From an uncultured Chloroflexia bacterium (lineage in GTDB: Bacteria > Chloroflexota > Limnocylindria > Limnocylindrales > CSP1-4): 64,000 nucleotides of DNA. Shown here piece by piece: positions 23,041-46,746 of the stretch (the stretch's first letter is position 1; the number at the start of each line of letters is the position of its first letter). The DNA lies in assembly GCA_963734535.1 (NCBI GenBank), contig CAVTHS010000014.1, positions 96,001 to 160,000 on the forward strand, in the 5' to 3' direction. Below the pieces are notes generated by a model that made no database searches, was not told the DNA's origin, and was given only the letters and a program-made list of their open reading frames with translations. A program made the translations under genes and the position numbers.

Positions 23041-23445
23041 GTGTTGCAGGACGGTCCGCGAGCGGCGGATCCTCCCCGACCAGCCGGGAGCTTCGCCCTG
23101 TCCCCTTCGCCAGCCCGGATCCGCGGGACCCTCGCATCGATCGTCGACCAGCCCGACGAGCTGCGCGAGCTGCGCACCTTCCACCGGGCGCTCGCCGACG
23201 TGAACCGGCTGCGGATCGTTCGCCGCCTCGCGGAGACCCCCTCGACGGTGACCGAGCTGATCGATCACGTCGGGCTGTCGCAGCCGCTCGTCAGCCACCA
23301 CCTCAAGCGCCTCCGCGACGCGGGGCTGGTCGTGACCAGGCGGGCCGGGCGCGAGACGATCTGCTCGCTCCGGCCCGGGGCCTTCGACGAGGTCGCCGCA
23401 CGTGAGCGCGTCGTGCTCGGCTACGCGCCGCCCGTGGTGGGCTGA
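23041..23445 (+). CDS. ArsR/SmtB-family regulator
   Basis: ALADVNRLRIV, LSQPLVSHHLKRLRDAGLV and RRAGR motifs; start uncertain (GTG 23041). Confidence 0.85.
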   Translation: MLQDGPRAADPPRPAGSFALSPSPARIRGTLASIVDQPDELRELRTFHRALADVNRLRIVRRLAETPSTVTELIDHVGLSQPLVSHHLKRLRDAGLVVTRRAGRETICSLRPGAFDEVAARERVVLGYAPPVVG

Positions 23446-23456
23446 GGCGCGGGCGG

Positions 23457-24164
23457 ATGACCATCTCGAACCAGACGCGCAGCCGGATCAAGCGACTCGG
23501 CGAGCCGCTTGCGCTGGCCCTTGGCAGGGCCGGCCTCACCCCGGACGGTCTGACTTTGATCGGCTTCGGGGTCACCGCCGCGGGGGCGGTCCTGCTCGCC
23601 AACCAGATGTGGCTGGTGGGCGGGCTCGTGGTCCTCTGCGGGGCCTCGTTCGACATGCTCGACGGGGCCCTGGCGCGGGCGTCGGGCCGGGTGAGCCGCT
23701 TCGGCGCGTTTCTCGACTCGGTCCTCGACCGCTCCGGAGAAGCGCTCGTCTACGTCGGCCTGGTCTGGGGCACGCTCGATCTCGGCCTGTGGCGCCCCGT
23801 CGTCCTCGCCGCCGCGGCCATGGCCGCGGCGTTCATGGTCAGCTACGTCAGGGCCAAGGCGGAAGGCCTGGGCTTCTCCCCCGGAACCGGGATGGCCGCC
23901 GTCGGCCTCGCGCCCCGCGAGGTCCGGACGGTCATCCTCACCCTCGGCCTCGTCGTCGCGGGAATCCTGCCGGGCTTCCCGGCGGACATGAACGCGCCGG
24001 GCGCGCAGGCGTACCCGCTATCGGCGCTCGCCCTCGAGGCAGCGCTCGGGCTCATCGCGCTCCTCGGGACGGTGACCGTCATCCAGCGAATCCTCCACAC
24101 CCGGGCCCAGGCGCGCCTCCAGGAGCACGCGGCGGCCGGGGAGACGCCCGTGCGGCCGGGCTGA
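23457..24164 (+). CDS. pgsA: CDP-alcohol phosphatidyltransferase, phosphatidylinositol-phosphate synthase-like
   Basis: DMLDGALAR...[10 protein letters not shown] signature; [13 protein letters not shown] and TVIQR resemble PIP synthases; adjacent to ino1. Confidence 0.88.
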
Positions 24165-24225
24165 CATTGCACCACCGACCCACGGACCCAAAGCCAACCC
24201 CCAGCAGGAGGCACGAGACAACCAA

Positions 24226-25482
24226 ATGGCCAAGAAGGACTCGATCAAGGGGAGCACGAACGGCGTGAGCAGCAACGGAACGAGCACGAGCGAGGCCGGC
24301 ACCTGGGCCGGGTCGAAGCGCAAGGACGGCAAGATCCGCGTCGCGATCGTCGGCGTCGGGAACTGCGCCAGCAGCCTTGTCCAGGGTCGCTTCTACTACG
24401 AGAACGCCAAGGAGACGGAGGCTGTCCCGGGCCTCATGCACGTCAACCTCGGCGGCTACCACGTCCGCGACATCGAGTTCGTGGCTGCCTTCGACGTCAA
24501 CGCGACCAAGGTCGGCAAGGACCTCTCCGAGGCCATCTACGCCGAGCCAAACAACACGATCGTCTTCCAGCAGGTCCCCCACATGGGCGTGACCGTCGAT
24601 CGCGGCATGACCCACGACGGCCTGGGCAAGTACCTGTCCCAGATCATCAAGAAGGCGCCCGGGCCCACGGCCGACATCGTCGGCATCCTGCGCGAGCGCG
24701 AGGTCGACGTCATGGTCTCCTACCTGCCGGTGGGCAGCGAGGAGGCGACGAAGTGGTACGTCGAGCAGGCCCTGCGCGCGGGCGTGGGGTTCGTGAACGC
24801 GATCCCGGTCTTCATCGGCCGCGAGCCCTACTGGCAGCGCCGCTTCGCCGAGATGGGCCTGCCGGTCATCGGCGACGACATCAAGAGCCAGGTCGGCGCG
24901 ACGATCACCCATCGCGTGATGACCCGCCTCTTCATGGACCGCGGCGTGCGCCTGGACCGGACCTACCAGCTGAACTTCGGGGGCAACACCGACTTCCTCA
25001 ACATGCTCGAGCGCGAGCGCCTCGAGAGCAAGAAGATCAGCAAGACCAACGCGGTCACCTCGATGCTCGACTACGACATCGACCCCGACAACATCCACGT
25101 TGGCCCGAGTGACCACGTGCCGTGGCTTCTCGACCGCAAGTACTGTTACATCGTCATGGAGGGGACCACGTACGGGGACGTTCCGCTGAAGGCCGAGCTC
25201 AAGCTCGAGGTCTGGGACAGCCCCAACAGCGCTGGCGTCATCACCGACGCGATCCGCTGCCTGAAGCTGGGCCTGGATCGCGGCCTCAAGGGAACCCTGG
25301 TCGCCCCGTCGAGCTATTTCATGAAGAGCCCGCCTCTCCAGGTCCACGACGACATCTCGTACAACCGCGTCGAGGCGTTCATCCGCGGCGAGGACAACGA
25401 GACGCTGGTCGGGACGGAGAAGCCCGTCGCCCGATCGCTCCGGACCCTGGCCAAGGCGCCGGACAAGGTCGCCGTGAAGTGA
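24226..25482 (+). CDS. ino1: myo-inositol-1-phosphate synthase
   Basis: [48 protein letters not shown] and WDSPNSAG motifs. Confidence 0.97.
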
Positions 25483-26582
25483 TGTCCGCTCCCGGGACGC
25501 CCGGCACCCCCGACGGGGCGCCGGGCACCGAGGCCAGGAGCGGCTCCCGGACCGCGCTCCGCGCGCCCCATCACCGTGAAGCGCAGGGGCGGCGCTTGCG
25601 GGCACGGTCCGCCGTGCTCGGATACCGGGCCGGCGCGTGGACCCTCGCTCGCCTGCCGCTCGGACCGGCGACGCGCGTCGGCGGCTGGATCGCGGTCGCC
25701 GTCTACTGGGCATGGCCGGCCCGGCGCCGCTACGTGCGCGCCAACGCCGCGCGTGTGCTGGGCGTCGACGCGAGCGATCGCCGCGTCGGCCACCTGGCGC
25801 GCGGCGTCTACCGGAACCAGGTCCGCTGGGTCCTGGAGCTGATGCGGCTGTCGCGCCTCTCCCAGGCGGAGCGGGTCGCGCAGATCGGCGACAACGCCGC
25901 CGAGCCGTTCCATTCCGCGTGGCTCGAATCGGACGGGTTGATCATCGTGGGGGCCCACCTCGGCAACAACGAGGCGGCTGCGGCGGGCCTTGCTGGCCGT
26001 GGCTGGCCGATCCACGCCGTCGCGGACGATACGGCGTACGAGGAGCTCTTCGACCATCTCAACCGGGAGCGCCTCAGCTGGGGGGTCGGGCAGATCCCGT
26101 GGCGGAATCTCCGGGAGGTCTTCCGGGTCCTCCGGCGGCGGGAGATCGTGGGACTCCTGGTGGACTGGGGCTACCGCCCCGACGGGATCCCGGTCCGGTT
26201 CTTCGGGGCCTGGACGCGCTTCCCCGCCGGACCCGCGGTGCTCGCCGCCAAGACCGGCGCGACGATCCTTCCCTTCTGGGTGATCCGCACCGACGGCCGC
26301 CATGCGACCGAGGTCGGCGAACGCATCACGGTCGCCTCGATGGAGCCGGCCGACCTGGCGCGGGCGACGCAGCAGATCGCGGACACGCTCGAGGCCGGGA
26401 TCCGCCTCGCGCCGGAGCAATGGTGCGTCTTCAAGCCGATGTGGCCGGACGACCCCGCCGAGATCGCCCGCCTCGAGGCGCTCGCCGCGGTGCCGCAGTC
26501 GGCCGTCGCTGCCGAGGGCGCCGTGTCCGATCCCGCCGAGGGCGCGACCCCCGACGGGGCCGCGGCGCGCGTCGGTGCATGA
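25482..26582 (+). CDS. PatA/LpxL-family acyltransferase 1 (phosphatidylinositol mannoside acyltransferase-like)
   Basis: AHLGNNE, LLVD, VRFFG..PAGPA.LA and PEQW motifs. Confidence 0.82.
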   Translation: MSAPGTPGTPDGAPGTEARSGSRTALRAPHHREAQGRRLRARSAVLGYRAGAWTLARLPLGPATRVGGWIAVAVYWAWPARRRYVRANAARVLGVDASDRRVGHLARGVYRNQVRWVLELMRLSRLSQAERVAQIGDNAAEPFHSAWLESDGLIIVGAHLGNNEAAAAGLAGRGWPIHAVADDTAYEELFDHLNRERLSWGVGQIPWRNLREVFRVLRRREIVGLLVDWGYRPDGIPVRFFGAWTRFPAGPAVLAAKTGATILPFWVIRTDGRHATEVGERITVASMEPADLARATQQIADTLEAGIRLAPEQWCVFKPMWPDDPAEIARLEALAAVPQSAVAAEGAVSDPAEGATPDGAAARVGA

Positions 26583-27585
26583 CGGTCGCACGAGCGTGAT
26601 CGTGGCGCCGGCAGTGTGCGTTCCGCTCGGCGCCACCCGCGTCCAACGGCTCCGCGTTCGCCTGCTCGAGGCGACCGGCTGGGTCGCGAACCGCCTGCCA
26701 GCGAGCGTGGCGGGCGGCGCCGCCGACGCTGCGGGCGAGCTCTGGTACCGCGCCACCCCGGCGCGAGCCGCCCAGGCGCGCGCGAACCTGGGACGCGTGG
26801 TCGCGCACCTCGCCGCAACCGGCATGGGATCCGACCGGGTCCGGGCCGCGGCCGGCGATCCCGCCGCGCTCGAGCGCCTGGTCCGCGCGTCCTACCGCCA
26901 GGCGGCACGGACCTACGCCGAGATGCTCCGGGCAGGCGCCGTCATCCGGGAGGCCCCGGGCCGGACTCGCGTCGAGGGGCCCGAGGCCGTCGACGCCGCC
27001 TTCGCGACCCACCCGGCGATCTTCTCTTCCCTCCACTTCGGGTCGCTCCAGGCGACCGAGGCCATCCTGCTGACCCGGACCGACATCCCGGTCACTGCCC
27101 CCATGGAGACGCTCGACGATCCGGCCCTCCAGGCGTTCACTTCGAGGGCTCGATCGGCGACCGGCGTGCGCCTCGTGACCCTCGAGGCCGCCCGGCGCGA
27201 GCTGCGCGCCGCGCTGGCCCGCGGCGAGTACGCGGGGATCGTGGGGGACCGCGACGTCGGCGGCGGCGGCATGCCGGTGACCTTCTTCGGCTCGCCCGCG
27301 CCGCTGCCCGTCGGGCCCGCGTTGCTCGCGCTCGAGTCCGGCGCCCCGATTCACGTGGCGGCCGTCCGGCGCCTCCGCGGCGAGCGGTTCGCGGGCCGCC
27401 TCGAGACGATCCTGCCGCCGGACGGGCCCCACGCGGCGGGCCCGGGCGCCCGGCGGGCCCGCGTCGAGGCGCTCCTCGCGGCGGAGGCCGGCGCGTTCGA
27501 GCGTCTCGTGGCGGACGCCCCCGAGCAGTGGTGGACGGTCCTCTTCCCGATCTGGCCCGACCTCGAACCGGTGCCGCGCCGATGA
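26575..27585 (+). CDS. PatA/LpxL-family acyltransferase 2 (divergent)
   Basis: LHFGSLQ, IVGDRD, VTFFG..PVGPA.LA and PEQWW motifs; start approximate. Confidence 0.75.
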   Translation: MHDGRTSVIVAPAVCVPLGATRVQRLRVRLLEATGWVANRLPASVAGGAADAAGELWYRATPARAAQARANLGRVVAHLAATGMGSDRVRAAAGDPAALERLVRASYRQAARTYAEMLRAGAVIREAPGRTRVEGPEAVDAAFATHPAIFSSLHFGSLQATEAILLTRTDIPVTAPMETLDDPALQAFTSRARSATGVRLVTLEAARRELRAALARGEYAGIVGDRDVGGGGMPVTFFGSPAPLPVGPALLALESGAPIHVAAVRRLRGERFAGRLETILPPDGPHAAGPGARRARVEALLAAEAGAFERLVADAPEQWWTVLFPIWPDLEPVPRR

Positions 27586-28454
27586 GCGCGGGTGGCACCT
27601 CCCGTCGGTCGGCCGGTGGCCCGGACCCGGCGCAGCCGCATGGCCGTGCCGACCTGCACGTCCACACGCTCGCCTCGGACGGGGTCGACGGGATCGAGGC
27701 GATCCTCGACTACGCGGTCGCACGCACGGACCTCGACGTCCTCGGGATTGCCGACCACGAGCGGATCGATGCGGCCGTCGCCGCGCGGGCGCTCGCCCGT
27801 GAGCGCGGGCTGCGGATCGAGATCGTCGTGGGCGAGGAGGTGACCACGCGCGATGGGCACCTGCTGGCCCTCTTCGTGGAGGAGCGGCTCCGTCCGTTCC
27901 GCTCGATGCGCACGACGATCGGCGAGATCCACGAGCAGGGTGGCATCGCCATCCCGGCCCACCCGCTCTTCCCCTACCCGCTCTGCGCGCAGGGCTGGAC
28001 GCTCCGGCGCCTCCTGACCGCGGATGATCCCCGCGTCCGTCCGGACGCCCTGGAAGCCTTCAACCCCACCACGTTCGGGCGCCTTGTCCACGAGCGGGTC
28101 AGCCTGTTTGCCGCGGCGCACGGCGTGGCCACGATCGGCAGCAGCGACGCGCACGCCGCGGCGTCGGTCGGGACGGGCTTCACAACCTTCCCCGGACGGA
28201 CGGCAGAGGACGTGCGACGCGCGATCCTCGACGGGACGACGGGCTGGGAAGGGTCCTTCCACCGGACGGCTGCGCAGCTCCCGACGTTCGGGCGGCAGCT
28301 CCGCAAGTACGGCCGCGACCTGCGGGCGGAGGTCGGCGGCCGGGTCCGGCGCGATGGAACCGGGCGTGACCTGGGCTACCCCGGGGGTCGCTTCCGCCCG
28401 CCCCGGCCGGGCGAGACCGCCGGGGTCGTGCGACCGCGGGACGACGCCTCGTGA
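27582..28454 (+). CDS. PHP-family phosphoesterase
   Basis: ADLHVHT..SDG, IADHE, GEEV, GHLL, AHP, EAFN and GSSDAH motifs. Confidence 0.88.
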   Translation: MSAGGTSRRSAGGPDPAQPHGRADLHVHTLASDGVDGIEAILDYAVARTDLDVLGIADHERIDAAVAARALARERGLRIEIVVGEEVTTRDGHLLALFVEERLRPFRSMRTTIGEIHEQGGIAIPAHPLFPYPLCAQGWTLRRLLTADDPRVRPDALEAFNPTTFGRLVHERVSLFAAAHGVATIGSSDAHAAASVGTGFTTFPGRTAEDVRRAILDGTTGWEGSFHRTAAQLPTFGRQLRKYGRDLRAEVGGRVRRDGTGRDLGYPGGRFRPPRPGETAGVVRPRDDAS

Positions 28455-29632
28455 AGATCGGGCTCGTCACCCCGTACGTCTACCCGTTGCCGGGCGGGGT
28501 GAACGACCACGTGGGGCACCTCTACGAGACGCTCCGGGCGCGGGGTCACGACGTCCGGATCCTGACCGCCAGCCACGGCCTGCAGCGCAGCTCCGAGGGC
28601 GACGTCATCCGGATCGGGAAGGGCTTCTCGGTGCCCTCCAACGGGTCGATGGGGACGATCACCGTCTCGCCGCGCTACCGGAGCCAGATCCAGGACGTCC
28701 TGGACCGCGAGCAGTTCGACCTGCTGCACTTCCACGAGCCCTTCGTGCCGCTCCTGGCGTTGTTCACCCTGCGCGAGTCGCGGAGCGTGAACATCGCGAC
28801 GTTTCACGCCTACGCGGGCTATGCCCCCGGCTACCAGCTGGGCGGGAAGATGCTGGGGCCCGTCGCCCGCAACCTCCACGGAAGGATCGCGGTCAGCGCC
28901 GCCGCCCGGCACTTCGCCGATCGCTACCTGCCCGGGGACTACAAGGTGATCCCGAACGGGGTCGACCTGCGCCGTTTCGCCCACGCGGTTCCGATGGCCC
29001 GCTGGCAGGACGGGCGGCCCAACATCCTGTTCGTGGGCCGGCTCGAGCCGCGCAAGGGCCTGCTCCCGCTCCTCAAGGCCTACCGGATCCTGCGCAAGAG
29101 CGGGTGCGACTGTCGCCTCCTCGTCGTTGGCTCCGGGCCGCAGGAGCGCGAGGCGCGCCGCTACGTGATGACCCGCCGCCTGCCCGACGTGGAGCTCCTG
29201 GGCCGCGTCTCGGACGGCGACAAGGTCCAGCTGTTCAAGTCCGCGGACGTCTATGTTTCGCCGGCGACCGGCCGCGAATCGTTCGGGATCGTGCTCCTCG
29301 AGGCGATGGCGGCCGGGACGGCCATCGTCTGCAGCGACATCCACGGCTACAAGGGCGTGGTGAAGCGGGGTGAGCAGGCGCTCCTGGTGCCGCCGGGCGA
29401 GTCGCGACCGCTGGCGGAGGCGATCCTCCGCCTCCTCGCGGACCCGGCTCTCCGCGAGCGGATGGGAGCAAGCGGGCTGGAGCGCGTCGTCGACTACGGG
29501 TGGGACCGGATCGGCGCCCGCGTCGAGGCCTATTACGGGTTCGTGATCCGGCGCCTGGCGGCCCAGGGCGCGCTGCCCCGCGACTTCCACGCCGAGGTCC
29601 CGCCCGACCCGCGGGGCAGCCCCGTCACCTGA
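28451..29632 (+). CDS. pimA: GT4 phosphatidylinositol alpha-mannosyltransferase-like
   Basis: PY..PGGV..HV, NGS, FDLLHFHEP, ATFH, GRIAVS, IPNGVD, EPRKG and ESFGIVLLEAMAAG match PimA; pgsA-patA context. Confidence 0.82.
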   Translation: MKIGLVTPYVYPLPGGVNDHVGHLYETLRARGHDVRILTASHGLQRSSEGDVIRIGKGFSVPSNGSMGTITVSPRYRSQIQDVLDREQFDLLHFHEPFVPLLALFTLRESRSVNIATFHAYAGYAPGYQLGGKMLGPVARNLHGRIAVSAAARHFADRYLPGDYKVIPNGVDLRRFAHAVPMARWQDGRPNILFVGRLEPRKGLLPLLKAYRILRKSGCDCRLLVVGSGPQEREARRYVMTRRLPDVELLGRVSDGDKVQLFKSADVYVSPATGRESFGIVLLEAMAAGTAIVCSDIHGYKGVVKRGEQALLVPPGESRPLAEAILRLLADPALRERMGASGLERVVDYGWDRIGARVEAYYGFVIRRLAAQGALPRDFHAEVPPDPRGSPVT

Positions 29633-29651
29633 CTCCGCGTCGACGCCCCGT

Positions 29652-32600
29652 TCACGGGCCGGACGGCTCGGTCCCCTCGGGCACCCCTGCCTCGTCGACC
29701 AGCCGCTCCGCGGTCGCGAGGCGCCAGACCCACGCGCTGTAGGCCACGATCACGGCCGAGACGAGGACCGCGGCGAACAGCAGGACCGGCCACGGGCTGG
29801 CGAACGAGACGCTGAACGGCGGGTCCGTGTTGACGGCGAACTGGAACGGGTAGAGCCAGGACGGGAGCAGCCCCTGGTACCAGTTGAAGATGCCGTTCGG
29901 GAGCGGCAGCCCCGACCAGTTCGGGTAGAACGCGACGAACACGACGGCCGCCGCGAGGACCACGCCGACGGCGAAGCGACGCGGCGAACGCGCCGACCAT
30001 GCGAGCCACGCGATCGGTCCGAGGACCAGGAGGAGGAGGAGCGAGAGGACCTCGCCCGGGAACGCTCGGCGTCTGGACGAGCGGCGTCGCCGGGAGCAGG
30101 ACCGCGGCGGCCACCAGGCTCGCGCCGGCCACGACCCCCGTGCCCAGGATCCGACGGGAAGCTGCCCCGGCCTCGACCTGATCGGCGCCGGCCCGGATCG
30201 CCCGGTCGAGGCGCACGAGCTGCCAGACCAGCAGCCCGCCGCCGACCACGAGGACGCCGATCAGCCCGACCACCTGTGCTGAGAGCGTGAACGGCAACGC
30301 GGCCGAGGCGGAGCACGCCGGCGAGCCCGGGTTGACCTTCTCGACGCCGGCGATCGCGCACAGCGGACCCTTGCCGAGCCACATCACGACCGGCGCGAGG
30401 AGCGCCGCGGCCGCGCCGGCGCGGGCCAGTCGCCAGGTGCGCGCCGACGGCCCGTGCCAGAGCTCGGCGACGAAGTAGGCAAGGCCCAGGACCACGAACG
30501 GCAGGGTCGTGTAGAAGTGGTACTCGAAGGTGGCGCGGTCGATCCGCGCCCACGAGATCCAGAGCCAGCCGATCATGATCGAGATGAGCGCGAGGCCCAG
30601 GCTCCGGCGCCGGTAGGCCTGCCACGCGACGAATGCGATCGCCGGGATGGCGAGCCACCAGATGACCAGGTTCCCGCCGTCGTAGATCGCGCCCGACGTG
30701 GACCCGCCGAAGCCCTGCTGGAAGAACCAGACGGGCTTGAGGTTGAGCGGCCAGCCCCACCAGGGCGAGGCGGCCGCGTGCGTCGCCCGCAGGTTGTTGT
30801 GGTAGTCGTACATCGACTTCGTGAGGTCCAGCAGGGTCTGGCCGGTGTTGCCCGGCGGGGAACGTCGCTGTCAGCCGGTTGCCCAGCGCCACCCACGGCA
30901 GGTAGAGGGCGACGTAGACCGCGGCCGGGATCGCCAGCAGGGAGACGCCCGCCCACCCGATCGGGAGGCCCCAGCGCCAGCCCGGACGGAGCCACCCATC
31001 CGGGGCGGCTGCGGGCGGATCGAGCAGCGCCGCCGGGTCGTCCGGCGCGGGCGGCGGCGCGAGCGGCCCGAAGCCGAGCCGGCCCGAGAGCCAGAAGCCG
31101 CCTGCAGCGAGCGCGGCAAGGCCGAAGCAGCCGAGCGCGAGCGCGAGGGCCGTGGTGCCGAGATGGAGCGGGATGGCCGCCAGGGCAACGAGCGCGCCGA
31201 CCCCGGCGGGGCCTGCCACGGCGACCTGGACCTCCTCCGTGGTCCACGCGATCGGATGGAGCACCGTCACCACGGCGGCGACCAGGGTGAGGGCGATCAT
31301 GATCGCGAGAAAGGCGAGGTTGCCACTCGCGGTGTCGCCGGCGGGCACCGAGACGGCCATGTACCCGAGCACGGCCGTGACGACCGCGAGACCCAGCACC
31401 ACCACCACGCGCCCGAGCGCCGACCGGACGAGGATCAGGAGGCCGATCGCCCCGATCGCGTAGAGGGCGACCCACTTCGAGGCGAGGCCAAGGCCCAGCA
31501 GGACGCCGACGAGCGGCATACCGACCCAGAATGCTCCGCGCCACTTCCAGGCGCCCGTCCAGATCGCCGCGAACAGGGTGACCGCCGCGACGATGAAGAG
31601 CGCCGCGTACGTGTCGTTCATCGCGATCCGCTGCTGGACGAAGAACATCCCGTCGAGCAGGCCGAAGACCCCCGCGAGGATCGCCACCGACCGGCGGCGG
31701 AAGAGGATTCGGGCCAGCAGGAAGAGCAGCCCGGCCATGAGCGCGCCCGCGATCACGCCCGGGAGTCGCCACGCGAACGCGTGCTGGCCGATGTCGACCG
31801 AGGCGGCCTCGCCATCGCCGCCGAACACGAGCAGCTGCTGGCGGTCCGTCGCCGGCTGATCGATGTTGACGTCCGTCGCCCAGCGTGGCGGGCTCGAACG
31901 GCAGGCGCGCGTCGGCGAAGACGCTGTTCCCGCGTGGCTCCACCGCGTAGACGGTCCAGCCGGTGCCGTCCGGCGTGCGGCCGAGAGCGTGCACGATCTG
32001 GCTCGCATCGTCGACGGTGACCCGGCTGATCGCGGCCGGCATCCAGACCGTCTGGTCGACGGACGGCGCGGTTCCGTCGGCGGGGAGCCGGATCGCGGTG
32101 AGCGACTTCCCCGTCGCCGCGTAGATCATCGGCGCGTCGAGTCCGTCGACCTTGACCAGGCCGGTGGCGCCACCCGTAATGGGGATGTCGCCGGTCACGG
32201 CCCCGCTCTGCGGGTCCACGAACGCCACGCCGCCCGCGTCGGCCACCGCCACGCGCGGCACGCCCGCGACGCTCAGCCCCGCCAGCGAACCGCCGGCGAT
32301 GGCGGCGTCGAGCTGGGCCCGCTGGTCCTTGATCGCGGTGGCGATGGTCACCCGGGGCGCGCTCGAGCGGAGCTGCTCCTCGTACGTGGCGGCCGTCCCG
32401 CCGAGGATCCGGGCAAGCTCCGCCGCCGCGCCGGCGGGATCGGTCACCGCCGCCGGATCCGCCACGAGCGCGTCGACCGTGCCCGCGTCGGCGACGTCCG
32501 CCCGGCCGGGCAGGCTGAACGAGGCGAGATGGGCGCCGCTCGTCACGTCGAGCGAGACGAGCGAGTCGCCGGGCGTCGCCGCGATGAGGGTGGCCCCGGA

Positions 32601-34740
32601 GTCGGTGAGCCAGAGGCGGTCCACCGCGCCACCGGCCGATCCGAGCGGGTCGAGGGTGACCGGGGCCGCCGCGCCCGTGTCGCCCGCCCGAAGGTCGCCG
32701 GCGCTGACGGCCGTGTCGAGGGTCAGGATGTCGCCCGACGCGGTGCCGACGTAGAGGCGGTGGCCGGTGGCGTCGAGCGCGACGGCCCGGGCGCCCGGCA
32801 GCACGAACGTTGCCAGGCGCTCGCGGGTCTGCAGGTCGAACACCCGCAGGTCCGCGCCCGTCGCCACGTAGAGCCGGTCGCCGCCCTGGCGAACGCTCCC
32901 GACGGCAACCGGGTCGACCCAGCCGCGGTTCGGTCGCGACGTCGGCGACCGGCACCCCGAGCGTGCTCGTGGCCGTCACCCGGTCGTCGCCGAACGCGAC
33001 GAGCCCGCCGGCGATCGCGTACTTGGCGAGATGCGGATGGGTGTACTCGTAGATCGCGTGGGGCTGCCCGTAGCGCCAGTCCTGCAGGAACTCGGCTGCC
33101 GTCCGCGCGTGGTAGACCTCGTCGAAGTGCATCCGCGCGGGCTCGCCCAGGCGGAACGTCCGCAGGCAGAGCGACACGACGACCAGCACGACGATGAACC
33201 AGAGGTCGAGACGGTCGAGCCTGCCGCCGCCTTCGCGATGGAGCAGGTGCGAGCGGTCGAAGCTCGCGCGGCTCGCGAGCGATCGTGCTCCCCGGGCCGC
33301 CCGGCCGAGGCCCGCCGCGAGCGCGAGCCCGCCGGCCGCCGGGAGAGCGCCCAGCTCCGGGGCCACCCGTGCATCGTCGTCGGACTCGGCCATCCGGGCG
33401 GCGGACGCGTCGGTCTCGGCCGGCGACGGGCGGACAAGGAACCACAGGCCGGCCACCAGCCCGCCGGCGTGGAGCACCGCGCTCGTCGCCACGCCGCTCC
33501 ACGAGCGCACGGCATCTCCGAGCTGGGTTCCGAGCCCTCCGAACGCGAGCAGCATCGGGGCGAGCCCCAGGTTCTCGTAGAACGGCTCGGTCAGGATGCC
33601 GTAGAGGTTCGCCGTGTTCGCCACGGCGAGGACCGCGTACAGGCCCGCCCAGCGGGGGCTCACCGCGAGCAGCACGGCCCCGAGCGCGAAGAACGGGAAG
33701 AGGTACCGCTCGTGCACGCGCGTCGGCAGGACGAAGAAGGCGATCGCGATCACGGCCAGGGCGACGAGCAGCGTGCGCCGGTCGTCGCGACGCCAGATCG
33801 TCGCGGCGAGGAACGCGATCAGGCCCAGGAGCAGACCGCTCCCGACTGCGATGGCGGGGATGCCGAACACGAGGAAGCCCGCACCGCCGTCCGGGCCGGG
33901 CGTCGTCAGGTCGCGGATCCAGGTCCCGCTCTGGGCGAGGCCGTTCCCGTCCTGCGTGACCAGGGCCCACGGGTTGAACGCGTTGACGGTCAGCCACGGG
34001 TAGCCGGCCGCAGTGTCGAGGATCTGACGGAACAGCCCCACGATGGTCAGCCCGAACGGCAGGCACAGGAGCTGGGCCGTGGCAAGCCCGACGAGCGTCG
34101 TCGACACGAGGCGGCGCGGCCCATGGCCGGGCGGCCGCGTGACCAGGTTGCGGCGCAGGATCAGGATCGCTGCGAGCGGGATCAGGATCCCGAACTGGGG
34201 CTTGATGATCGCGGCCACGGTCGTCAGGAGCGCCGCACGTTCGTCCCGCCCGCGCCACAGCTCGCGCACGGCGAGCAGCAGGACCAGCGTCCCGACCGAG
34301 TCGACCTGGGACCAGACCGCGCTGTCGAACCAGGTGACCGGGACGAACAGGACCACTGCGGCGGCGACCAGCGCCGGGCGGCGGCGGGCGCCCAGGTCGG
34401 CCGCGAGCAGGAAGACGGCGACCGCGAGCCCGAGGTCGGCGAGGATCGGGGGCAGCTTGAGCAGGGCGCCCGGGGACCCGCCGGGGAGGCCGAACAGCTG
34501 CGCGACCAGGCCCAGGCCCCACAGGACATAGAGGTAGCCGGGCGTGTAGTCGATGAAGATCGGGCGGTCGTAGATCCCGAATGGCCCGTTCCTGGCGAGC
34601 TCCACCGCCCAGCCATCGAACGAGTTGACGTCCACCTTGAACCCCGACCCGGGCAGGAGGACGTATGCGATGATGAGCCGAAGGGCGAGGCCGAGCGCGA
34701 GAAGGATGCCGAGCGGGACGGCAACGTCTCGAAGCCGCAC
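29652..34740 (-). CDS. ~1700-aa double GT-C protein: Gpi18/GT87-like domain + PMT (GT39) domain with a large inserted soluble domain; broken by four +1 frameshifts
   Basis: Segments in five successive frames: DYTPGY/WSQVDS/IKPQ/HERY; FDEVYH/EYTHPHLAK; beta-rich insert; AWRLPG/RIAMND/ASKW; YHNNL..H..ASPWWGWP/FEYHFY. Shifts at ~32925, ~31885, ~30858 and ~30058. Confidence 0.75.
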
Positions 34741-34848
34741 CCGGGCCCCCTCGCCGGCCCGCGCCCGCTCGCCCGGTGCGGGGCCAGCCAAGGGAAACGG
34801 CCTCCGTGAACGAGCGCTGAGGTGGACCGGAGTATAGCCGAGGGTTCG

Positions 34849-36229
34849 GTGCCCCTTCCCCGTCGCGCCGTCCCCGTCGCCGCCCCATCCCGTTCGACGC
34901 TCGCCGTCGGGATCGGCCTGGTCGTCGCCTGCTTCGTGCTGTACTCCCTGAGCCGGCCGGCCTGGCAGACCGTCTACAACCACTTCGTCTGGCAGGCGGA
35001 CGCGTTCCTCCACGGCGAGGCCTCCATCAGGTACCCGGTACCCGCGACCGGCACGTCGCCGGGGAACGACTTCTTCAACGACGTGGTGCGGGTGGTCGAC
35101 GCTGCCGGGAACCAGACGGGCCGCGGGATGATCCCGTTCCCGCCCCTTCCGGCCGTGATCCTCCTCCCCTTCGTCGCCATCTGGGGAATGGCCACGGACC
35201 AGGCCTTGCTGGCCGTGGTGTTCGGCGCCCTGGACGTCGGGGTCGCGTTCTGGCTCCTTGGTCGGGTGCCCATCAGGGCGGGGCTTCGCGCGGCCCTGAC
35301 GGTCTTCGTGGGGGCGGGCAGCGTCCTCTGGTATGCCTCGTCGCTGGGAACCACGTGGTTCCTCGCCCACGTCGTCGCCCTCGGGCTCACCCTCGCCGCG
35401 GTCGCGATCGCCCTGGACGCCGACGAACGGTCCACGGCTCTCGGGCGCGAGGCGGCGCGCCGGATTCCTCGACCGGCGGCAGGTGCTCGCGGGCCTCCTC
35501 CTGGGCCTCGCCGTGACGAGCCGGCTGACCGTGGCGTTCGGGGTGGTCTTCCTGGTCTTCGTCGGCGGGGGTGGCTCCTGGGTGCGGCGTGCCGCGGGCG
35601 CTGCGCTCGGCATGGCGATCCCCGTGGGTCTGCTGCTTGCCTATAACCTCGCCGTCAGCGGGACGCTCTTCAACCCGGTCTACGAGTCGCTCTACCGCTA
35701 CGAGGTCTGGGCATACCCGGACCTCAACTACCACGCCGAGTGGTCGCTCCAGGACCTCCGCTACATCCCCCAGAACCTCGGGATCATGCTCTTCGGCGCG
35801 CCGGACGTGATGCCTCCGTGCGGCACCGGCGTCCCGCGCGAGATCTGGAGCGCCGCCGGCTGCTCGTGGCTGGTCCCCCGACCAGTCGGGATGAGCCTCC
35901 TGCTCACGAGCCCGGCCTGGCTCCTGGCAGCGGCATCGGCCCCCCTCCTGCGCGACCGGCGGGTCGCGGGCGGCCTCCTCGCCACGCTCGCGATCGCGGT
36001 CGTCAACCTGATGCACTTCTCACAGGGCTGGGTCCAGTTCGGCTATCGCTTCAGCCTCGACTTCGCGCCGTTCCTGCTCATCCCGGTCGCGCTCGGCGCC
36101 GAGCGGCTGCTGGCCGGGCGCGGGCGGAGAGCCGCCGCGTGGGGCGGTGTGCTGGTCGGCGGCCTGATCGTGGCCTCGGTGGCCGTGCAGGCCTGGGGGA
36201 TCGCATGGGCCCGGACCCTGGGCTGGTGA
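34849..36229 (+). CDS. Polytopic membrane protein, probable GT-C glycosyltransferase; +1 frameshift near 35458
   Basis: YNHFVWQADAFL, PFPPLPA, TWFLAH and QFGYRFSLDF motifs, many TM segments; two overlapping ORFs join into one protein. Confidence 0.6.
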
Positions 36230-37828
36230 GCGCGGCCCGTCCGCCGGCCCCGGTCCCTCGCCCGCCGGCGGCTCGCTGGCGCAGCCCGGCACGCGTCGGC
36301 GTCCCCGTGCTCGTGGGCGTGGTCGCCTTCGCCCTCGCGCGCTCGACGCTGCTTCCCGGCCTTGCCCTGTGGGACACGGGCGAGTTCCAGGCCGTGGCCC
36401 CCGTGCTCGGCACCGCCCATCCGACGGGATATCCCAGCTACATCCTGCTGGGCTGGGTCGCGAGCCTGCTGCTCGCACCGTTCGGCGAGCCGGCGCTGCG
36501 GATGAACCTTCTCTCCGCCATCACGCTGGGCGCGGCCGCCGGACTGACGGTCGTGCTGGTCCGCGGGCTGACCGGTCGAACGCCGGTCGCAGCCGCGGCC
36601 GGGATTCTCCTTGCGCTGACCCCGATCCCGTGGCGAGTCGGGTCGTTCGCCGATCCGCACATGCTCCACCTTGCCCTGGTCGCGGCGATCCTCGTGCTGC
36701 TGGCGGGCTGGGAGTCGCGGACGCGGGGCGGCCGGCCGAACGCGGACCGCTGGCTCGTCGCTGCCGCTGCGACGTATGGCGTCGCGCTGGGCAACCAGGG
36801 GCTGACGGTCCTGCTCGCGCCTGGGATCGGCCTCTTCGTCCTCGCTGTCGAGCCTGGCGTCTGGCGGCGATCGGCACAGCTCGGCCGCTGTGTCGCGGCC
36901 CTTCTCGGCGTCGCGGTGGTCCTCTACCTGGAGCTGCCGATCCGCGCCGCGATGGGCGCGCCGCTCGTCTACGGCCACCCGGACACGTGGGGCGGGTTCT
37001 GGTACGTGGTCCTGGGACTGCAGTTCGGGGGCGCGGTCAGCGGGCCGTTCGCGGACCTCGCGGGCAAGGCTGGCGCGCTCGTCAGCCTTGCGACGGCCCA
37101 GTTCGGACCGCTGGTCGCGCTCATCCCGGCCAGCTTCCTCGTCGTCGCGATCCGCCGGCCGCGATATGCGCTCCTGACCGGCTCGTCGCTTGTCGTCACG
37201 TGCTGGTTCGCGGCGTCCTACACGAATGCCGACATCGAGCGCTACTACCTCGGCCCGATCCTCCTCGTGATCAGCTGGCTCGCCATCGCCGCTGCGGCGG
37301 TGGTCGACGGCGTCGCGGCGCAGTGGCTCATCCTCGAGGACGAGCCCGGCACGCGACGGCCGGTCGTGGCCACGATCGCGAGCCTCGTCGTGGCCGTCGC
37401 CCTGGTTGCGCCGGCCGTCCTCGCCGCCCCAGCGACCCGGCTCACCGCTGACCAGTCCACCGACACGCGGGCCGCGGACTGGAGCCGCTGGGCCTTCCGG
37501 ACGGCGGAGCCGGACGCCGTCTTCGTGACGTGGTGGGGGTACTCCACGCCGCTGTGGTACCGGCAGGTGGTCCTGGGCGAGCGGCCGGACGTCCGGGTCG
37601 TGGACGACCGGACCCGCCTCGACGCGAGCCTGGGCACCGTGGACGACGTGATCAGGGCCAACGTGGGGAGCAGGCCGGTCTATCTCGTGCGACGCGACGA
37701 GGACCTGGCCGCGCTCGAGGGCGGCTGGCAGCTGGACGTGGTGCCGGACCCGGGCGGGCTCCAGCCCCTCCTCCGCGTGGTGGGCCCGCGTTCGGCGCAG
37801 CGGCGGCCCGGGTACGATTGCGCCGTGA
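36226..37828 (+). CDS. DUF2723 (TMEM260-like) membrane glycosyltransferase
   Basis: WDTGEFQ...LGTAHPTGYP signature, YLELPIRA, ERYYL and LWY motifs; as sequenced it reads through into the GT2 gene, with a TGA in the +1 frame at 37826-37828. Confidence 0.78.
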
Positions 37829-38610
37829 GCGAAGACGCCGCCACTCTTTCCGTCGCGCCGGCGCGAGTCCCGGCGCTCTCGTACTTCTTCCCGGCCCACA
37901 ACGAGGAGGCCAACCTCGAGGGGCTGGTGGAAGAGGCGCTCGCCGCGCTGCCGGCCCTCGCGGACCGGTTCGAGATCATCATCGTGGACGACGGTTCGAA
38001 GGACCGGACCGCGCAGATCGCGGACGCGCTGGCTGCCGCCAGCCCGGACCTCGTCCGGGCCGTGCACCATCCGACGAACCTCGGCTACGGCGCAGCGCTC
38101 CGCTCGGGGTTCCGGGCCGCGCGGATGGACCTGGTCTCGTTCACCGACGGCGACCGGCAGTTCCGGGTCGCCGACCTCGGCCGGCTGACGGGCCGGCTGG
38201 CCGGCCCGGACACCCCGGACGCCGTCGTGGGGTATCGGATCCGGCGGGCCGATCCCGTGATCCGGACGCTCTACGCCCGTCTCTACCGGCTCGCGTACCG
38301 GTCGCTCTTCGGCCTCCGCATCCGGGACGTGGACTGCGCGTGCAAGCTCTTCCGGCGCGATGCGCTGGCGCGCGTCCGCGTCGAGTCCGGCGGGGCGTTC
38401 CTGTCGGCCGAGCTGCTGATCAAGGTCCGCGCTGCAGGCGGGAACGTGGTCGAGGTCGGCGTCGACCACTACCCGCGCACGGCGGGCTCGCAGACGGGGG
38501 CCAGGCCGTCCGTCATCTGGCGCGCGGTCACCGACTTCTGGGGCCTCCGCCTGCGGCTCTGGGCGAACCGCGAGCGGGCGCTTCGGCGGGGTTCCGCGAT
38601 CGTCGGCTGA
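37825..38610 (+). CDS. GT2 polyprenyl/dolichyl-phosphate sugar (mannose) synthase-like
   Basis: FPAHNEE, IVDDGSKD, NLGYGAA, TDGD, DVDCACKL and E.GV.HYPR..G motifs; TACGAT 6 nt before the GTG. Confidence 0.85.
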   Translation: MSEDAATLSVAPARVPALSYFFPAHNEEANLEGLVEEALAALPALADRFEIIIVDDGSKDRTAQIADALAAASPDLVRAVHHPTNLGYGAALRSGFRAARMDLVSFTDGDRQFRVADLGRLTGRLAGPDTPDAVVGYRIRRADPVIRTLYARLYRLAYRSLFGLRIRDVDCACKLFRRDALARVRVESGGAFLSAELLIKVRAAGGNVVEVGVDHYPRTAGSQTGARPSVIWRAVTDFWGLRLRLWANRERALRRGSAIVG

Positions 38611-39244: not shown

Positions 39245-41575
39245 CTACGGGCTGGGCGTCGGCCGCGGGGTGCCGGACGGCTTCCTGGTCGCCGTCGCCT
39301 TCGGCGAGGCCTTCGGCGAGGCCGTGGGCGCGCCGGACGCCGCCGGGCTCGCCGAGCCACCGGGCAGCGCGCTGGCGCCCGGCGACCCGTCCGGGCCGGT
39401 GCCCGGGACCTGCTGGAGCGTCGCGGTCCCCAGCGTCGCCCCATCGATCCAGAAGATCGCGGGAGCCTGGCCCGGCGACCGGGGCGCGACGTAGAACCCC
39501 CGGAGGTCGGTCCAGGCCGGGCCGCCGCCGGCCGGCCGGTACTGCGCCAGGTAGGCACCGGTCAGCTTGTCGAACGCGAGCACCCGCGCATTCGCCGCGT
39601 CGAACACGTACAGGGTGCCTTCGCGGCGCGGGTCGGGCGAGTCGACCAGCGTGTACCGCCGGATCGGGCGCAGCGCGTCGTCGCCCGGCGGCGCCAGCGC
39701 CCAGTCACCCGACCGACCGCCCACGAAACGCTCGACCAGGCCCCCGTCGGCGAGATAGACCTCGCCGTCGATGTACATCGAGGTCACCTTCGAGACGTCC
39801 TGCGGGGTCGTCAGGTAGCCGGTCGCGGCGGCGGGATAGCTGGAACCGTCCGCGAGCATCGTGTAGCGCAGGATCTGCTGCTCCGACGGGTCGATGACGT
39901 ACAGGTTGTAGAGCGCCGCGTTGAAGTTGGCCACGAAGGTCCCGATCGCCATGATGTCGTTGCCCCAGGTGGCGGATTCCTGGACCGGGAGGCGACGCAG
40001 GGTGCCCTTGCCCGTGTCGTCGGCCGGGCGCCAGCGCCAGAGGATGTTCTTGTCGTCGAGCATGAGCAGGTCGGGACCGCCAACGGCAAGGTAGCGCGGC
40101 ACCCCCACCTTGATGCCGGCGCTCGCGACGACCTGGCCGGCCTTCATGATCGGGACGGCCTTGCGGGCCTGGAGGCTGATCCGGTAGACCGCCTTCGTTG
40201 TGCGGTCGAGGACGTACGGCGCGCCGTCCGGGCCCTGGACGAGCCCGGCGAGGTCGAAGGCCGGCTTCTGGGATGCGAAGGAGAACGCGGTCTGCGTCGC
40301 GATCTCCGCGACCCCATAGAGGCGGTCGAGCCCGGCCGTCGCCCGCAGGCGCACGGGGTCGAGCGTGGACGCCGGGATCCCGGCCGTCGCCGCCGTGGCG
40401 ACCTGGACCATCGCGTCCTTGAGCAGCTGCTCCGCGCGCCGCGGGTCGGCCGCGATCAGGTCCGTCCCGTTGTCGAAGACGAACCGGACATCGTCCCGGG
40501 CGGTCGCGAGGGCCTGTTCGCCCGCGGTGATCTGCGGGATCTGGGTGGTGGCGCCGGAGCCGCCGAGGACCCAGAGGCCGACGCCGAGGAGCGCGACGAT
40601 ACCGACGAACGCGAGCACCGCGTAGGCGGCCCGGCGCTGGGATTCGCGGCGGGTCGCCGCGGGCGTGACCCGCCGATAGCGGGTCCCGCGCCGTGGCAGC
40701 AGGTCCTGCACCCGGTCGACGACCCCGGCAAGCCCGCCACGGATCGCGTCGCGCGCCCGGCCGGCGCCCGACGAGACCGCGGCCAGCCCGCCCCCGACCG
40801 AGTCAGCGAGGGGGATCGGCGAACGGTCGGGGAGTCCCGCGAGGGGTTCGGGCGGCCGGACCGGGACGAGCCGGCCGCGGTGGGTGGTGGCCGAGACCTC
40901 GCCTGCCTCCAGGGCGAGCGCGGCGTCGCTGCCCGTCCCGCCCGCCGCCACGAAACGGTGGTGGAGGTGCTCCATCGCCGCCTGGGGGTGCAGCGTGACC
41001 ACGGCATCCTTGAGCTCGTCCGGGCCGAGCTTCGCGGTCAGGTTGGTCGAGACGAGGACGAGCGAGTCGCGGACTGCGATCTCGCCGCGCCACACCTCCG
41101 GGGTGATCTCCTCCATCGGCAGGCCGTTGGCGCGGGCCACGTCGGGCAGCGTCAGCAGGTGGGCCTGCCGGACGAGGTACGCCTCGGCGGGACCGGTCGT
41201 CACGACGTAGAGCTCGTTCCCGCGGACGACGGCCAGGCCGATGCCGATCGGGCCGGTTGGCCCGGCTCCCAGGGCAAGGCGCTCGCGCTGGGCGAGCAGG
41301 CGGCGGTTCGCGGCGCGGATCGCCTTCTCCAGGCACACGACGAGGCCAGCGGACTCGTCGTAGTAGTACTCCCCCTGGATCGTGTCCGCGACCACGTGGG
41401 TCGCCTCGCGCAGGCGCCGGCCCCGGCCGACGCCGGTCACAACGAGGAAGAGACTCCCCTTGGAACGGGCCGTCGCGCCGATCGTCGGCTCGACGATGGC
41501 GACGGTGTCCGGGGAGTCCTCGAGCCGCTCGGGCTCGGCCACGAGGCCGAGCTTCATCTGGAGTCGGACGGCCAT
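39245..41575 (-). CDS. Single-pass membrane protein: degenerate PP2C-like domain + TM + beta-propeller-like domain + Ser/Pro/Thr tail
   Basis: PP2C-like order of elements (LFLVV, LEKAIRAANRRL, ELYV, AYLVR, DSLVLVS); TM AAYAVLAFVGIVALLGVGLWVLG; repeated YVLD/YVID/YVFD strands. Confidence 0.6.
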   Translation of the reverse strand: MAVRLQMKLGLVAEPERLEDSPDTVAIVEPTIGATARSKGSLFLVVTGVGRGRRLREATHVVADTIQGEYYYDESAGLVVCLEKAIRAANRRLLAQRERLALGAGPTGPIGIGLAVVRGNELYVVTTGPAEAYLVRQAHLLTLPDVARANGLPMEEITPEVWRGEIAVRDSLVLVSTNLTAKLGPDELKDAVVTLHPQAAMEHLHHRFVAAGGTGSDAALALEAGEVSATTHRGRLVPVRPPEPLAGLPDRSPIPLADSVGGGLAAVSSGAGRARDAIRGGLAGVVDRVQDLLPRRGTRYRRVTPAATRRESQRRAAYAVLAFVGIVALLGVGLWVLGGSGATTQIPQITAGEQALATARDDVRFVFDNGTDLIAADPRRAEQLLKDAMVQVATAATAGIPASTLDPVRLRATAGLDRLYGVAEIATQTAFSFASQKPAFDLAGLVQGPDGAPYVLDRTTKAVYRISLQARKAVPIMKAGQVVASAGIKVGVPRYLAVGGPDLLMLDDKNILWRWRPADDTGKGTLRRLPVQESATWGNDIMAIGTFVANFNAALYNLYVIDPSEQQILRYTMLADGSSYPAAATGYLTTPQDVSKVTSMYIDGEVYLADGGLVERFVGGRSGDWALAPPGDDALRPIRRYTLVDSPDPRREGTLYVFDAANARVLAFDKLTGAYLAQYRPAGGGPAWTDLRGFYVAPRSPGQAPAIFWIDGATLGTATLQQVPGTGPDGSPGASALPGGSASPAASGAPTASPKASPKATATRKPSGTPRPTPSP

Positions 41576-41663
41576 GCGATTCGACGGACCTGACGCTCAG
41601 AGGCGGGCCGGCGTGACGCCGGTGGCGGGCAACCGCGCAGGCGGACATCGCCGCCCACCGGGG

Positions 41664-42023
41664 TCACCGGATGATACCCCGGCCCACCACCACCCGCAGC
41701 GATTCCGCCCGGATTCCGTCGGCCATCGCCGCGTATGCCGCGAGCAGGCCGTCGGCGCGCAGGAGCAGCTCCTGGCCGACGATCGGCGCGCTCGCCTCCA
41801 CGACCAGCACCCCGTCCCGCTCCAGCCGCACGGGCCGGGATCCACCCGCCGCCGCCGGCGCGTGGTCCTCCACGAGCCGATCCCACGCGGCGACGGCGCG
41901 CGCCCAGCGCAGCTGCTCCTCGAGGCCGAGGGCCCGGGCCGCCTCGGGCAGGAGATCGCCCACCCGGCGCGGCTGCCGGCGCCGCGGGACGCGCTCGTCG
42001 TCGAAGGGGCGGGCCGGCGACAC
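41664..42023 (-). CDS. dciA: DciA (DUF721) helicase-loading factor
   Basis: W..LV, A..SRP, GVLVV.A and QEL motifs; directly downstream of recF. Confidence 0.75.
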   Translation of the reverse strand: MSPARPFDDERVPRRRQPRRVGDLLPEAARALGLEEQLRWARAVAAWDRLVEDHAPAAAGGSRPVRLERDGVLVVEASAPIVGQELLLRADGLLAAYAAMADGIRAESLRVVVGRGIIR

Positions 42024-42032
42024 GCGGTGACC

Positions 42033-43172: not shown

Positions 43173-43213
43173 CGGGCTGGACGCGGCCAGGAGACCCGGT
43201 CGCGCGGCCGCCG

Positions 43214-46140: not shown

Positions 46141-46337
46141 GACGGACGACCCTGCATGACTCGGGCCTGCGGGCCCGGCGGTACTCGGTGACCGGTTCCG
46201 GGCAGCACGAACTGGACCAGAAACCACTGAATCGACACACGGCGGGACTACCCAGGTGGCCGAGCGACCGCTTCTGGGCGGCCCCCGGCGTCGCCCGGAG
46301 GTTGCCCGCAGGCGTCCCGGCGACCGTGGGCCGACGC

Positions 46338-46611: not shown

Positions 46612-46746
46612 ATGAAGCAGACCTATCAGCCGAAGAAGCGCCATCGCGCCAAGGAGCACGGCTTCCGCGCCCGGATGAAGACGACCGGGGGTCGCCGGGT
46701 TCTTGCCGCGCGCCGCGCCCGGGGCCGGAAGCAGCTGACGGCCTGA
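46612..46746 (+). CDS. rpmH: 50S ribosomal protein L34
   Basis: [44 protein letters not shown], translated by hand (below the ORF-track size). Confidence 0.97.

Follow-up and report, generated by a model that had tools for sequence, protein, structure and literature searches.

Does a stretch of DNA that appears in the open reading frame (ORF) track as five fragments encode several small proteins, the remains of a decayed gene, or one very large enzyme? This question is raised by a minus-strand locus in a 64 kb stretch, hereafter the window, of an uncultured Chloroflexia bacterium of the Limnocylindria (GenBank assembly GCA_963734535.1, contig CAVTHS010000014.1, positions 96,001 to 160,000 of the forward strand). 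An earlier reading of the letters and their ORFs, made without database searches (the sequence-only reading), had proposed that removal of four extra bases gives a single ORF of ~1,700 aa. The present analysis indicates that the locus almost certainly encodes one polytopic membrane enzyme of ~1,711 aa, which consists of a glycosyltransferase module of the GT-C type, a linker, a protein O-mannosyltransferase (PMT) module with a β-propeller in its external loop 1 (EL1), a PMT_4TMC domain and C-terminal helices.

The window has a G+C content of ~72%, and long spurious ORFs occur throughout. Third-position G+C, scanned along the window, indicated minus-strand coding from ~29650 to ~34700, in which the coding phase ran 1, 0, 2, 1, 0 with changes near 32900, 31850, 30850 and 30000. 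At each change the upstream frame stayed open for another 0.7-1.4 kb, and the stop-to-stop ORFs overlap one another by >1 kb, which indicates that the phase changes are frame breaks and not gene ends. All four steps have the same direction and correspond to one extra base each. When the intact 1,711-aa homologue P0002 was compared with the window by tblastn, five collinear high-scoring segment pairs (HSPs) were obtained over residues 1-1710 with 95-97% identity. The stop codon is at 29652-29654. Translation begins at TTG 34791, in agreement with the homologues, or at GTG 34740, the upper coordinate given in the sequence-only reading. The gene and its five segments are:

29652..34791, minus strand: whole gene, ~1,711 codons in five frames (G+C phase, tblastn of P0002, piecewise translation)
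34791-32926, minus strand: HSP 1, P0002 residues 1-622 (tblastn)
32924-31884, minus strand: HSP 2, P0002 residues 623-969 (tblastn)
31891-30851, minus strand: HSP 3, P0002 residues 967-1313 (tblastn)
30858-30055, minus strand: HSP 4, P0002 residues 1311-1578 (tblastn)
30059-29658, minus strand: HSP 5, P0002 residues 1577-1710 (tblastn)

The five translated pieces contained no in-frame stop, covered 1,707 of the 1,711 residues of P0002 and were 96.3% identical to it. Pfam matched GT87 (E 1.5e-5) and Alg6_Alg8 in piece 1, PMT (E 7e-12) in piece 3 and PMT_4TMC (E 2.5e-12) in piece 4, and nothing in piece 2. The single long ORF obtained by removing four bases was thus recovered from the collinear HSPs and the stop-free pieces.

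Relatives of the gene were collected by protein and by locus. A 353-aa query from the insert (P0001; window 31872-32930, minus strand) was searched among longer proteins and gave 140 matches at E<=0.001. Ninety-six of the 120 that were listed are proteins of 1,618-1,929 aa with PMT and PMT_4TMC; the best homologue is P0002 (95% identical). A locus scan with one genome per species returned at least 651 pattern matches; 310 relatives were confirmed by tblastn and 77 loci, all from genomes other than that of the window, were kept, the closest at 86% DNA identity. Among the matches listed, all 77 are titled as Chloroflexota metagenome-assembled genomes, under the names Chloroflexi, Chloroflexota, Chloroflexia, Limnocylindria and Limnocylindrales, together with four Anaerolineaceae/Anaerolinea. 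Where the match was 5 kb or longer, 51 of 60 loci showed a single ORF over >=97% of the match and nine were broken. Twenty-seven full-length homologues were aligned (alignment A1) for the invariant columns and Pfam counts given below. Among 1.84 billion cluster representatives, relatives of the insert numbered 302 (E<=1e-3), 161 (E<=1e-10) and 37 (E<=1e-30), and in the long proteins it always lay at ~residues 650-1040. Judged from these sequence comparisons, the insert appears to be a small, specific family, and the giant enzyme a conserved hallmark of the Limnocylindria (Chloroflexota) that is near-universal there. The database names of the homologues are generic ('phospholipid carrier-dependent glycosyltransferase', 'ArnT-like', 'hypothetical'), and literature searches on Limnocylindria glycosyltransferases, on GT39/GT87 in Chloroflexi and on PMT with β-propeller and GT-C found no paper on the giant-enzyme family.

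The bases that break the frame in the window are:

32925, minus strand: frameshift 1, one extra base, window GAACCGCGGCTGG versus relatives GAGCCGC-GCTGG (tblastn, DNA comparison)
31884..31891, minus strand: frameshift 2, one extra base in the last strands of the propeller, window ACGCTGG versus relatives ACG-TGG
30851..30858, minus strand: frameshift 3, one extra base in GCCGGGCAAC (tblastn, DNA comparison)
30055..30059, minus strand: frameshift 4, one extra base, window GCGTTCCC versus relatives GCG-TCCC

All four sites are one base shorter in relatives that are 83-86% identical in DNA. Their contexts are CGC to CGGC, ACG-C-TGG, GGG/C and GT to GTT, none of them a long homopolymer. In the 64 kb, seven frameshifts were found, all of them +1: four in the giant gene, one in its divergent neighbour, one in yidC and one in an FGGY kinase gene. 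In yidC (47321-48395, plus strand) the shift lies near 47950-47975, and positions 2-90 and 97-161 of the 60KD_IMP profile are in different frames. The FGGY kinase gene is without a stop in its own frame at ~15379-15390 (minus strand); one C fewer in the C5 run before TGA restores the stop, directly 5' of the ribosome-binding site of the next gene.

The four insertions are most likely assembly errors and not decay, since the shifts are one-signed, random in position, linked to the assembly and present also in the essential gene yidC; the five-fragment appearance of the ORFs is likewise most likely +1 indel noise and not biology. It could be argued instead that the giant gene and its divergent neighbour are real, recently inactivated pseudogenes of a strain that has lost the system. 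In favour of such a loss are the four shifts in one gene, a fifth in the membrane-protein gene beside it, and the junction contexts, which are not long homopolymers. Five of the seven shifts lie in 6.5 kb of the 64 kb (binomial p = 1.9e-4), a clustering that a uniform error rate fails to account for and that counts against our explanation. However, the window copy has no in-frame stop and no deletion, keeps 240 of the 240 columns that are invariant among the 27 full-length homologues, and shows a dN/dS (0.161 versus L002, 0.182 versus L001) no higher than that between the intact copies L001 and L002 (0.199). Mixed signs are expected from true decay, whereas all seven shifts of the window, and 11 of the 12 frame changes in the broken relatives, are +1, and the stop codon of the FGGY kinase as well as yidC is affected. 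Moreover, breakage follows one assembly series: 8 of 28 loci with one shared isolate-name prefix are broken versus 1 of 32 others (Fisher p = 0.009), at sites other than those of the window (residues ~173, 446, 478, 502, 517, 604, 711, 811, 890, 947, 1214). Inactivation is therefore considered quite improbable. To five separate small genes, or to programmed +1 frameshifting, we assign practically no probability. The raw ORF track and the common sign of the four shifts would fit either; yet the ends of the pieces cut across the propeller, PMT and PMT_4TMC domains, and the breaks of other genomes fall at different positions. Both are excluded by the collinear HSPs, by the 51 of 60 relatives with one continuous frame and by the absence of the extra bases from close relatives.

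Several apparent variants were also traced. In nine loci (L013, L021, L029, L045, L046, L049, L075, L060, L069) the tblastn match began only at ~residue 500, as if the N-terminus were different; this was ruled out in seven (all but L060 and L069), where a hidden Markov model of the N-terminal module matched at E 1e-178 to 1e-215. A stand-alone form with PMT and propeller (1,047-1,216 aa: P0080, P0150, P0126) was ruled out for the P0080/P0299 pair: P0080 (PMT and propeller, 1,047 aa) and P0299 (N-terminal module, 615 aa) share one contig, and P0299 ends in an out-of-frame translation of the linker. That L006, L035, L038 and L057 are naturally split into two genes was rejected as well, because their upstream frame stays open for another 305-839 nt and has no stop where the modules meet. 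Breaks in the linker (~residues 446-530) occur in four of the nine broken loci, namely these four, and in the P0299/P0080 pair; gene callers then give two proteins that resemble a natural split. The homologues are thus single genes, in keeping with the sequence-only reading, and apparent splits such as that of P0299 and P0080 are frameshift products.

From the N-terminus to the C-terminus, the parts of the enzyme are:

33382..34791, minus strand: N-terminal GT-C module, residues ~1-470, ~10 hydrophobic spans, GT87-like (Pfam, invariant columns, hydropathy, Atlas)
33232..33381, minus strand: charged variable linker between the two GT-C modules, residues ~471-520 (hydropathy, variable A1 columns)
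32986..33231, minus strand: transmembrane helix 1 (TMH1) of PMT and first part of EL1 with two horizontal helices, residues ~521-602, including the DE motif and HPHLAK
31790..32985, minus strand: β-propeller, ~400 aa, between horizontal helix 2 and TMH2 of PMT (AlphaFold2, Foldseek)
31424..31783, minus strand: PMT core after the insert, TMH2 onward, residues 1003-1122, equal to positions 81-199 of the Pfam PMT profile
30436..30837, minus strand: PMT_4TMC domain, residues 1318-1451 (Pfam)
29655..30435, minus strand: additional membrane region at the C-terminus, past the end of a canonical PMT, residues ~1452-1711, with several more hydrophobic spans (AlphaFold2, hydropathy)

Pfam PMT (PF02366) scored 45.8 bits in the window piece and 45.0 bits in P0002 against a cut-off of 22.7, and PMT_4TMC (PF16192) scored 47.1 bits in the window piece against 32.4; both were found in 27/27 homologues and PMT_2 in 25/27 of A1. 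The acidic FDE motif, which had been described as intact, is present as HFDEVYHA, its D557/E558 (33118-33123) being invariant in 27/27 homologues and kept in the window. The match to the PMT profile is split. Residues 515-602 correspond to positions 2-57, weakly (E 0.036), and residues 1003-1122 to positions 81-199, so that ~400 residues occupy the place of ~24 profile positions of a canonical PMT. No MIR (β-trefoil) family was among the Pfam matches at E<=0.01 in the 27 members. The PMT module probably belongs to GT39, as a family member by Pfam and not as an equivalog of the characterised enzymes. An AlphaFold2 model of the homologous 1,190-aa segment of L002 (pLDDT 89.3, pTM 0.88) showed TMH1 (3-21), helices 34-50 and 63-76, strands over 81-476, a long helix (480-507) and the membrane core, a helix order as expected for the 11-TMH core of a PMT. 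The Foldseek search of this model listed propellers only, so that its result bears on the insert and not on the membrane core.

The segment that interrupts the PMT module is predicted to be a β-propeller. AlphaFold2 folded the window's own insert from 93 aligned rows with pLDDT 92.8 and pTM 0.90, and every PDB match listed by Foldseek was a β-propeller (E down to 1.5e-9), among them the YVTN protein 1l0q (E 3e-9, TMq 0.54), BamB (8orr) and WD40 proteins. These results agree with the earlier placement of a ~400-aa propeller-like insert at ~32985-31790 inside PMT. The model has 28 strand elements, four of them long, which would fit seven or eight blades plus a helical excursion of ~50 aa. Pfam gave no significant family for the insert, the best matches (E 0.067-0.086) being far under the cut-offs; PQQ_2 was touched in one of the 27 members and Beta-prop_EML_2 in one, and the first Atlas match was a YncE-like cluster (0.91, a weak recognition). 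In the nomenclature used for the M. tuberculosis enzyme MtPMT in PMC12331936, the predicted structure places the insert in EL1 after the horizontal helices. Considering the N-in N-terminal module of ~10 spans and the positively charged linker, the propeller is likely to be outside the membrane.

The N-terminal module contains a conserved D54 and DYTPGY in its first loop and, later, a TRVHERY (HERY) motif. Pfam GT87 (PF09594) scored 26.0 bits in the window module and 25.3 in the piece, against a cut-off of 25, and matched at E<0.01 in 24 of 35 N-terminal modules (best 6.6e-7); Alg6_Alg8 matched in 12/35, Mannosyl_trans4 in 3/35 and PIG-U in 1/35 at the same threshold. PF09594 was precomputed in 26 of 120 listed short relatives of the module. 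The GT57 family (ALG6/ALG8, PF03155) reached 21.6-22.5 bits, under its gathering score of 25. The Atlas neighbours are clusters of stand-alone bacterial proteins of 436-451 aa of the GT87/Alg6_Alg8/MptA_B kind, in which 10-41% of the members carry GT87 or Alg6_Alg8, and the source names of the relatives include 'glycosyltransferase 87 family protein', 'DUF2029 domain-containing protein' and 'Gpi18-like mannosyltransferase'. No Pfam match to Gpi18 / GPI mannosyltransferase 2 was found at E<=0.01 in the window pieces, the 27 full-length homologues or the 35 N-terminal modules. Of the label 'Gpi18/GT87-like GT-C' given by the sequence-only reading, GT-C was therefore borne out and GT87-like is the best Pfam label, at a marginal score, while Gpi18 was not supported by Pfam and is only one source's name for some homologues. 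The linker that follows has ~50-70 residues, with a 67-residue loop that contains 8 K/R and 10 D/E, and is probably cytoplasmic. A complex prediction of the N-terminal module (20-460) with the PMT parts (520-602, 1000-1470) of A1 scored 0.00; it was control-free and says nothing on module packing.

The enzyme resembles known systems in its modules and differs from them in how these are joined. It shares with actinobacterial Pmt (GT39, e.g. MtPMT) the PMT and PMT_4TMC core and the EL1 DE motif described in PMC12331936, and it recalls the pair of Pmt and PimE/GT87, in which, following PMC12757957, a GT87-like GT-C could extend the first mannose, polyprenol-phosphate-mannose being the presumed donor. 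Unlike that pair, the two enzymes form one polypeptide, EL1 carries a propeller of ~400 aa, extra helices follow at the C-terminus, the host belongs to the Chloroflexota and not the Actinomycetota, and the score is far under the NCBIfam PMT equivalog cut-off. The PMT part without the insert is ~800 aa long, compared with ~520 aa for a typical bacterial PMT. Eukaryotic PMT1/2/4 and POMT1/2 are likewise GT39 enzymes in which a loop on the extracytoplasmic side, next to the catalytic face, contains a bulky soluble β-rich domain; this domain, MIR, has been implicated in substrate handling and dimerisation, according to PMC12331936, PMC7759382 and PMC12705809. The present insert is in EL1, whereas MIR is in EL4 according to PMC12331936, and it is a propeller and not a β-trefoil. 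The propeller and MIR would then be independent acquisitions.

A GT-C core with a soluble extracytoplasmic domain for selecting or holding the acceptor is also the general design of TMTC1-4 and TMEM260 (tetratricopeptide repeats, TPR) and of mycobacterial EmbA/B/C and AftD (periplasmic carbohydrate-binding domains), although their domains are of the TPR or jelly-roll/carbohydrate-binding type and mostly terminal. We know of no propeller inserted in EL1 of a GT-C enzyme, and the literature search on PMT with β-propeller and GT-C found none inserted there. At the fold level the insert is like the YVTN, YncE and BamB propellers, as seen in the matches 1l0q and 8orr; it differs from them in having no named sequence family, in its helical excursion and in being embedded in a membrane enzyme. 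The insertion site and the inserted fold are new, and the GT39 and GT87-like modules are known.

The genes on both sides of the locus are conserved with it:

34810..36229, plus strand: divergent neighbour, a polytopic membrane protein of ~470 aa without Pfam or NCBIfam family
36247..38601, plus strand: TMEM260-like GT-C (residues 43-199) fused to GT2 (residues 548-709), single ORF
23436..29632, plus strand: convergent block of the phosphatidylinositol mannoside (PIM) type, with a phosphatidylinositol (PI)-phosphate synthase-like gene, inositol-1-phosphate synthase, two PIM-acyltransferase-like genes, a PHP hydrolase and a GT4

The divergent neighbour, which is one ORF of 472-479 aa in L001 and L002 and is +1-shifted near 35420-35460 in the window, is kept beside the giant gene in 58-59 of the 77 loci. 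The GT2 part of the TMEM260-like fusion matched best the polyprenyl-phosphate-sugar synthases (ArnC, PpgS, dolichyl-phosphate hexose transferase), and the fusion is a candidate for combining, in a single chain, the synthase of a lipid-linked sugar donor with a GT-C that uses it. In the PIM-type block, both acyltransferases gave the NCBIfam PIM acyltransferase NF005919 as best match (3e-38 and 1e-25, both under the cut-off), and the CDP-alcohol transferase matched archaetidylinositol-phosphate synthase (3.3e-40) and PI-phosphate synthase (2e-37) best. Synteny of the block is kept in 58-75 of the 77 loci, and the gene order from dnaN to the PI-phosphate synthase-like gene in 46-75, many of which end at contig edges. 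A search for PI-mannosides in Chloroflexota found no paper. A promoter and terminator scan of 29300-35200 detected no promoter-like site and one terminator-like site, against 0.8 expected.

Beyond these genes, a 745-aa protein without Pfam family (39362-41596, minus strand) has one predicted membrane span and is conserved in 59/77 loci; its C-terminal half, with the repeated strand motifs LYVIDP, VYLADG and LYVFDA, resembles another propeller. The replication-origin region comprises dnaA, dnaN, recF and a DciA-like gene (41673-46149, minus strand) and rnpA, yidC and a Jag/KhpB-like R3H protein gene (46719-49645, plus strand). A P-type ATPase (E1-E2 ATPase and HAD hydrolase) encoded at 51700-54054 (minus strand) has a C-terminal hemerythrin domain at residues 640-769. 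Two blocks of sugar catabolism and ABC transport, at 354-22863, include L-fucose isomerase, FucU/RbsD, a LacI regulator, rhamnose mutarotase, the FGGY kinase, an aldolase-SDR fusion and a DeoR regulator, and a 400-aa ORF without Pfam family is found at 8959-10158.

What the enzyme does can be approached by analogy. According to PMC12757957, mycobacteria use polyprenol-phosphate-mannose for two steps, the priming of Ser/Thr by GT39 Pmt and the extension by GT87 PimE, and the fusion of GT39 with a GT87-like module, with a probable donor synthase nearby, is most simply read as this two-step pathway in one protein. The function suggested by the sequence-only reading, a priming-plus-elongating enzyme with a substrate-recognition domain of its own, would agree with it. 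On this analogy we tentatively propose, at slightly less than an even chance, a protein O-mannosylation enzyme with a built-in propeller that handles the acceptor. Both catalytic faces and the propeller would be outside the cytoplasmic membrane. The PMT module would transfer the first mannose from polyprenol-phosphate-mannose to Ser/Thr of exported proteins, and the fused GT87-like module would lengthen it, as the free-standing PimE does in mycobacteria. The propeller may hold or select the acceptor beside the active site, a job ascribed to MIR, in a different loop, in eukaryotic PMTs, and the GT2 fused to the TMEM260-like GT-C, two genes away, may supply the lipid-linked donor. PMC12331936 describes bacterial PMTs as lacking MIR, treats how they compensate for it as an open question and, for MtPMT, counts EL1 among the elements possibly shaping acceptor choice. 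A stronger form of the proposal, in which the enzyme would be a self-contained O-mannosylation machine whose independently acquired EL1 propeller captures and feeds acceptors as MIR does in eukaryotic PMTs, is considered somewhat unlikely.

Several observations weigh against the proposed function or the module assignments on which it draws. The NCBIfam PMT equivalog NF058602 scored 26.2 bits against a cut-off of 800, and the whole-protein profile reached PMT4 in the PDB only at E 1e-4, the WD-repeat matches being weak too. The GT87 label, the best for the N-terminal GT-C module, is of marginal membership: full-length scans matched GT87 in 1/27 and Alg6_Alg8 in 11/27, and a profile of 35 N-terminal modules retrieved no GT-C chain from the PDB at E<=10. 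Where the propeller stands with respect to the catalytic pocket is deduced from chain order alone. Finally, the conserved PI/PIM-type lipid block nearby indicates a lipid acceptor as much as a protein.

This last point leads to a different function, in which the enzyme would build a PI-anchored glycolipid, such as a PIM- or lipomannan-like lipoglycan, and not glycoproteins. Both GT-C modules would then add polyprenol-phosphate-linked sugars to the phosphatidylinositol mannoside made by the neighbours, with the propeller serving to bind the glycan as it lengthens. The gene stands tail to tail with the PIM-type block in the order that most of the 77 loci keep, and its N-terminal module has GT87 and MptA_B relatives. 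GT87 and MptA_B enzymes act on PIM and lipomannan in mycobacteria. However, the giant gene is convergent with the block and hence not co-transcribed with it, and since synteny across the class extends over the entire region, dnaN and recF among it, the adjacency may reflect genome conservation and not function. PMT and PMT_4TMC over the Pfam cut-offs, together with the DE motif, are moreover the signature of a protein O-mannosyltransferase. A glycolipid product, the main rival, is regarded as unlikely, and protein O-mannosylation is retained as the working proposal.

Among bacteria, protein O-mannosylation has been described almost exclusively in Actinomycetota. There, according to PMC12331936, the Pmt primer and the PimE/GT87 extender are separate proteins. 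In the enzyme described here, GT39 and a GT87-like module are covalently coupled by nature, and a soluble domain is joined in a new way to the catalytic loop of a GT-C enzyme; the host class is abundant, uncultured and found in soil and freshwater. The locus also flags a PIM-type lipid gene block in the Chloroflexota. As a defined construct, the enzyme would allow priming and extension, and the role of the acceptor-binding domain, to be separated by mutation. If the stronger form of the proposal is true, the fusion would be a 'Rosetta stone' for the functional coupling of Pmt and PimE, and the propeller would be a natural answer to how bacterial PMTs without MIR gain acceptor selectivity.

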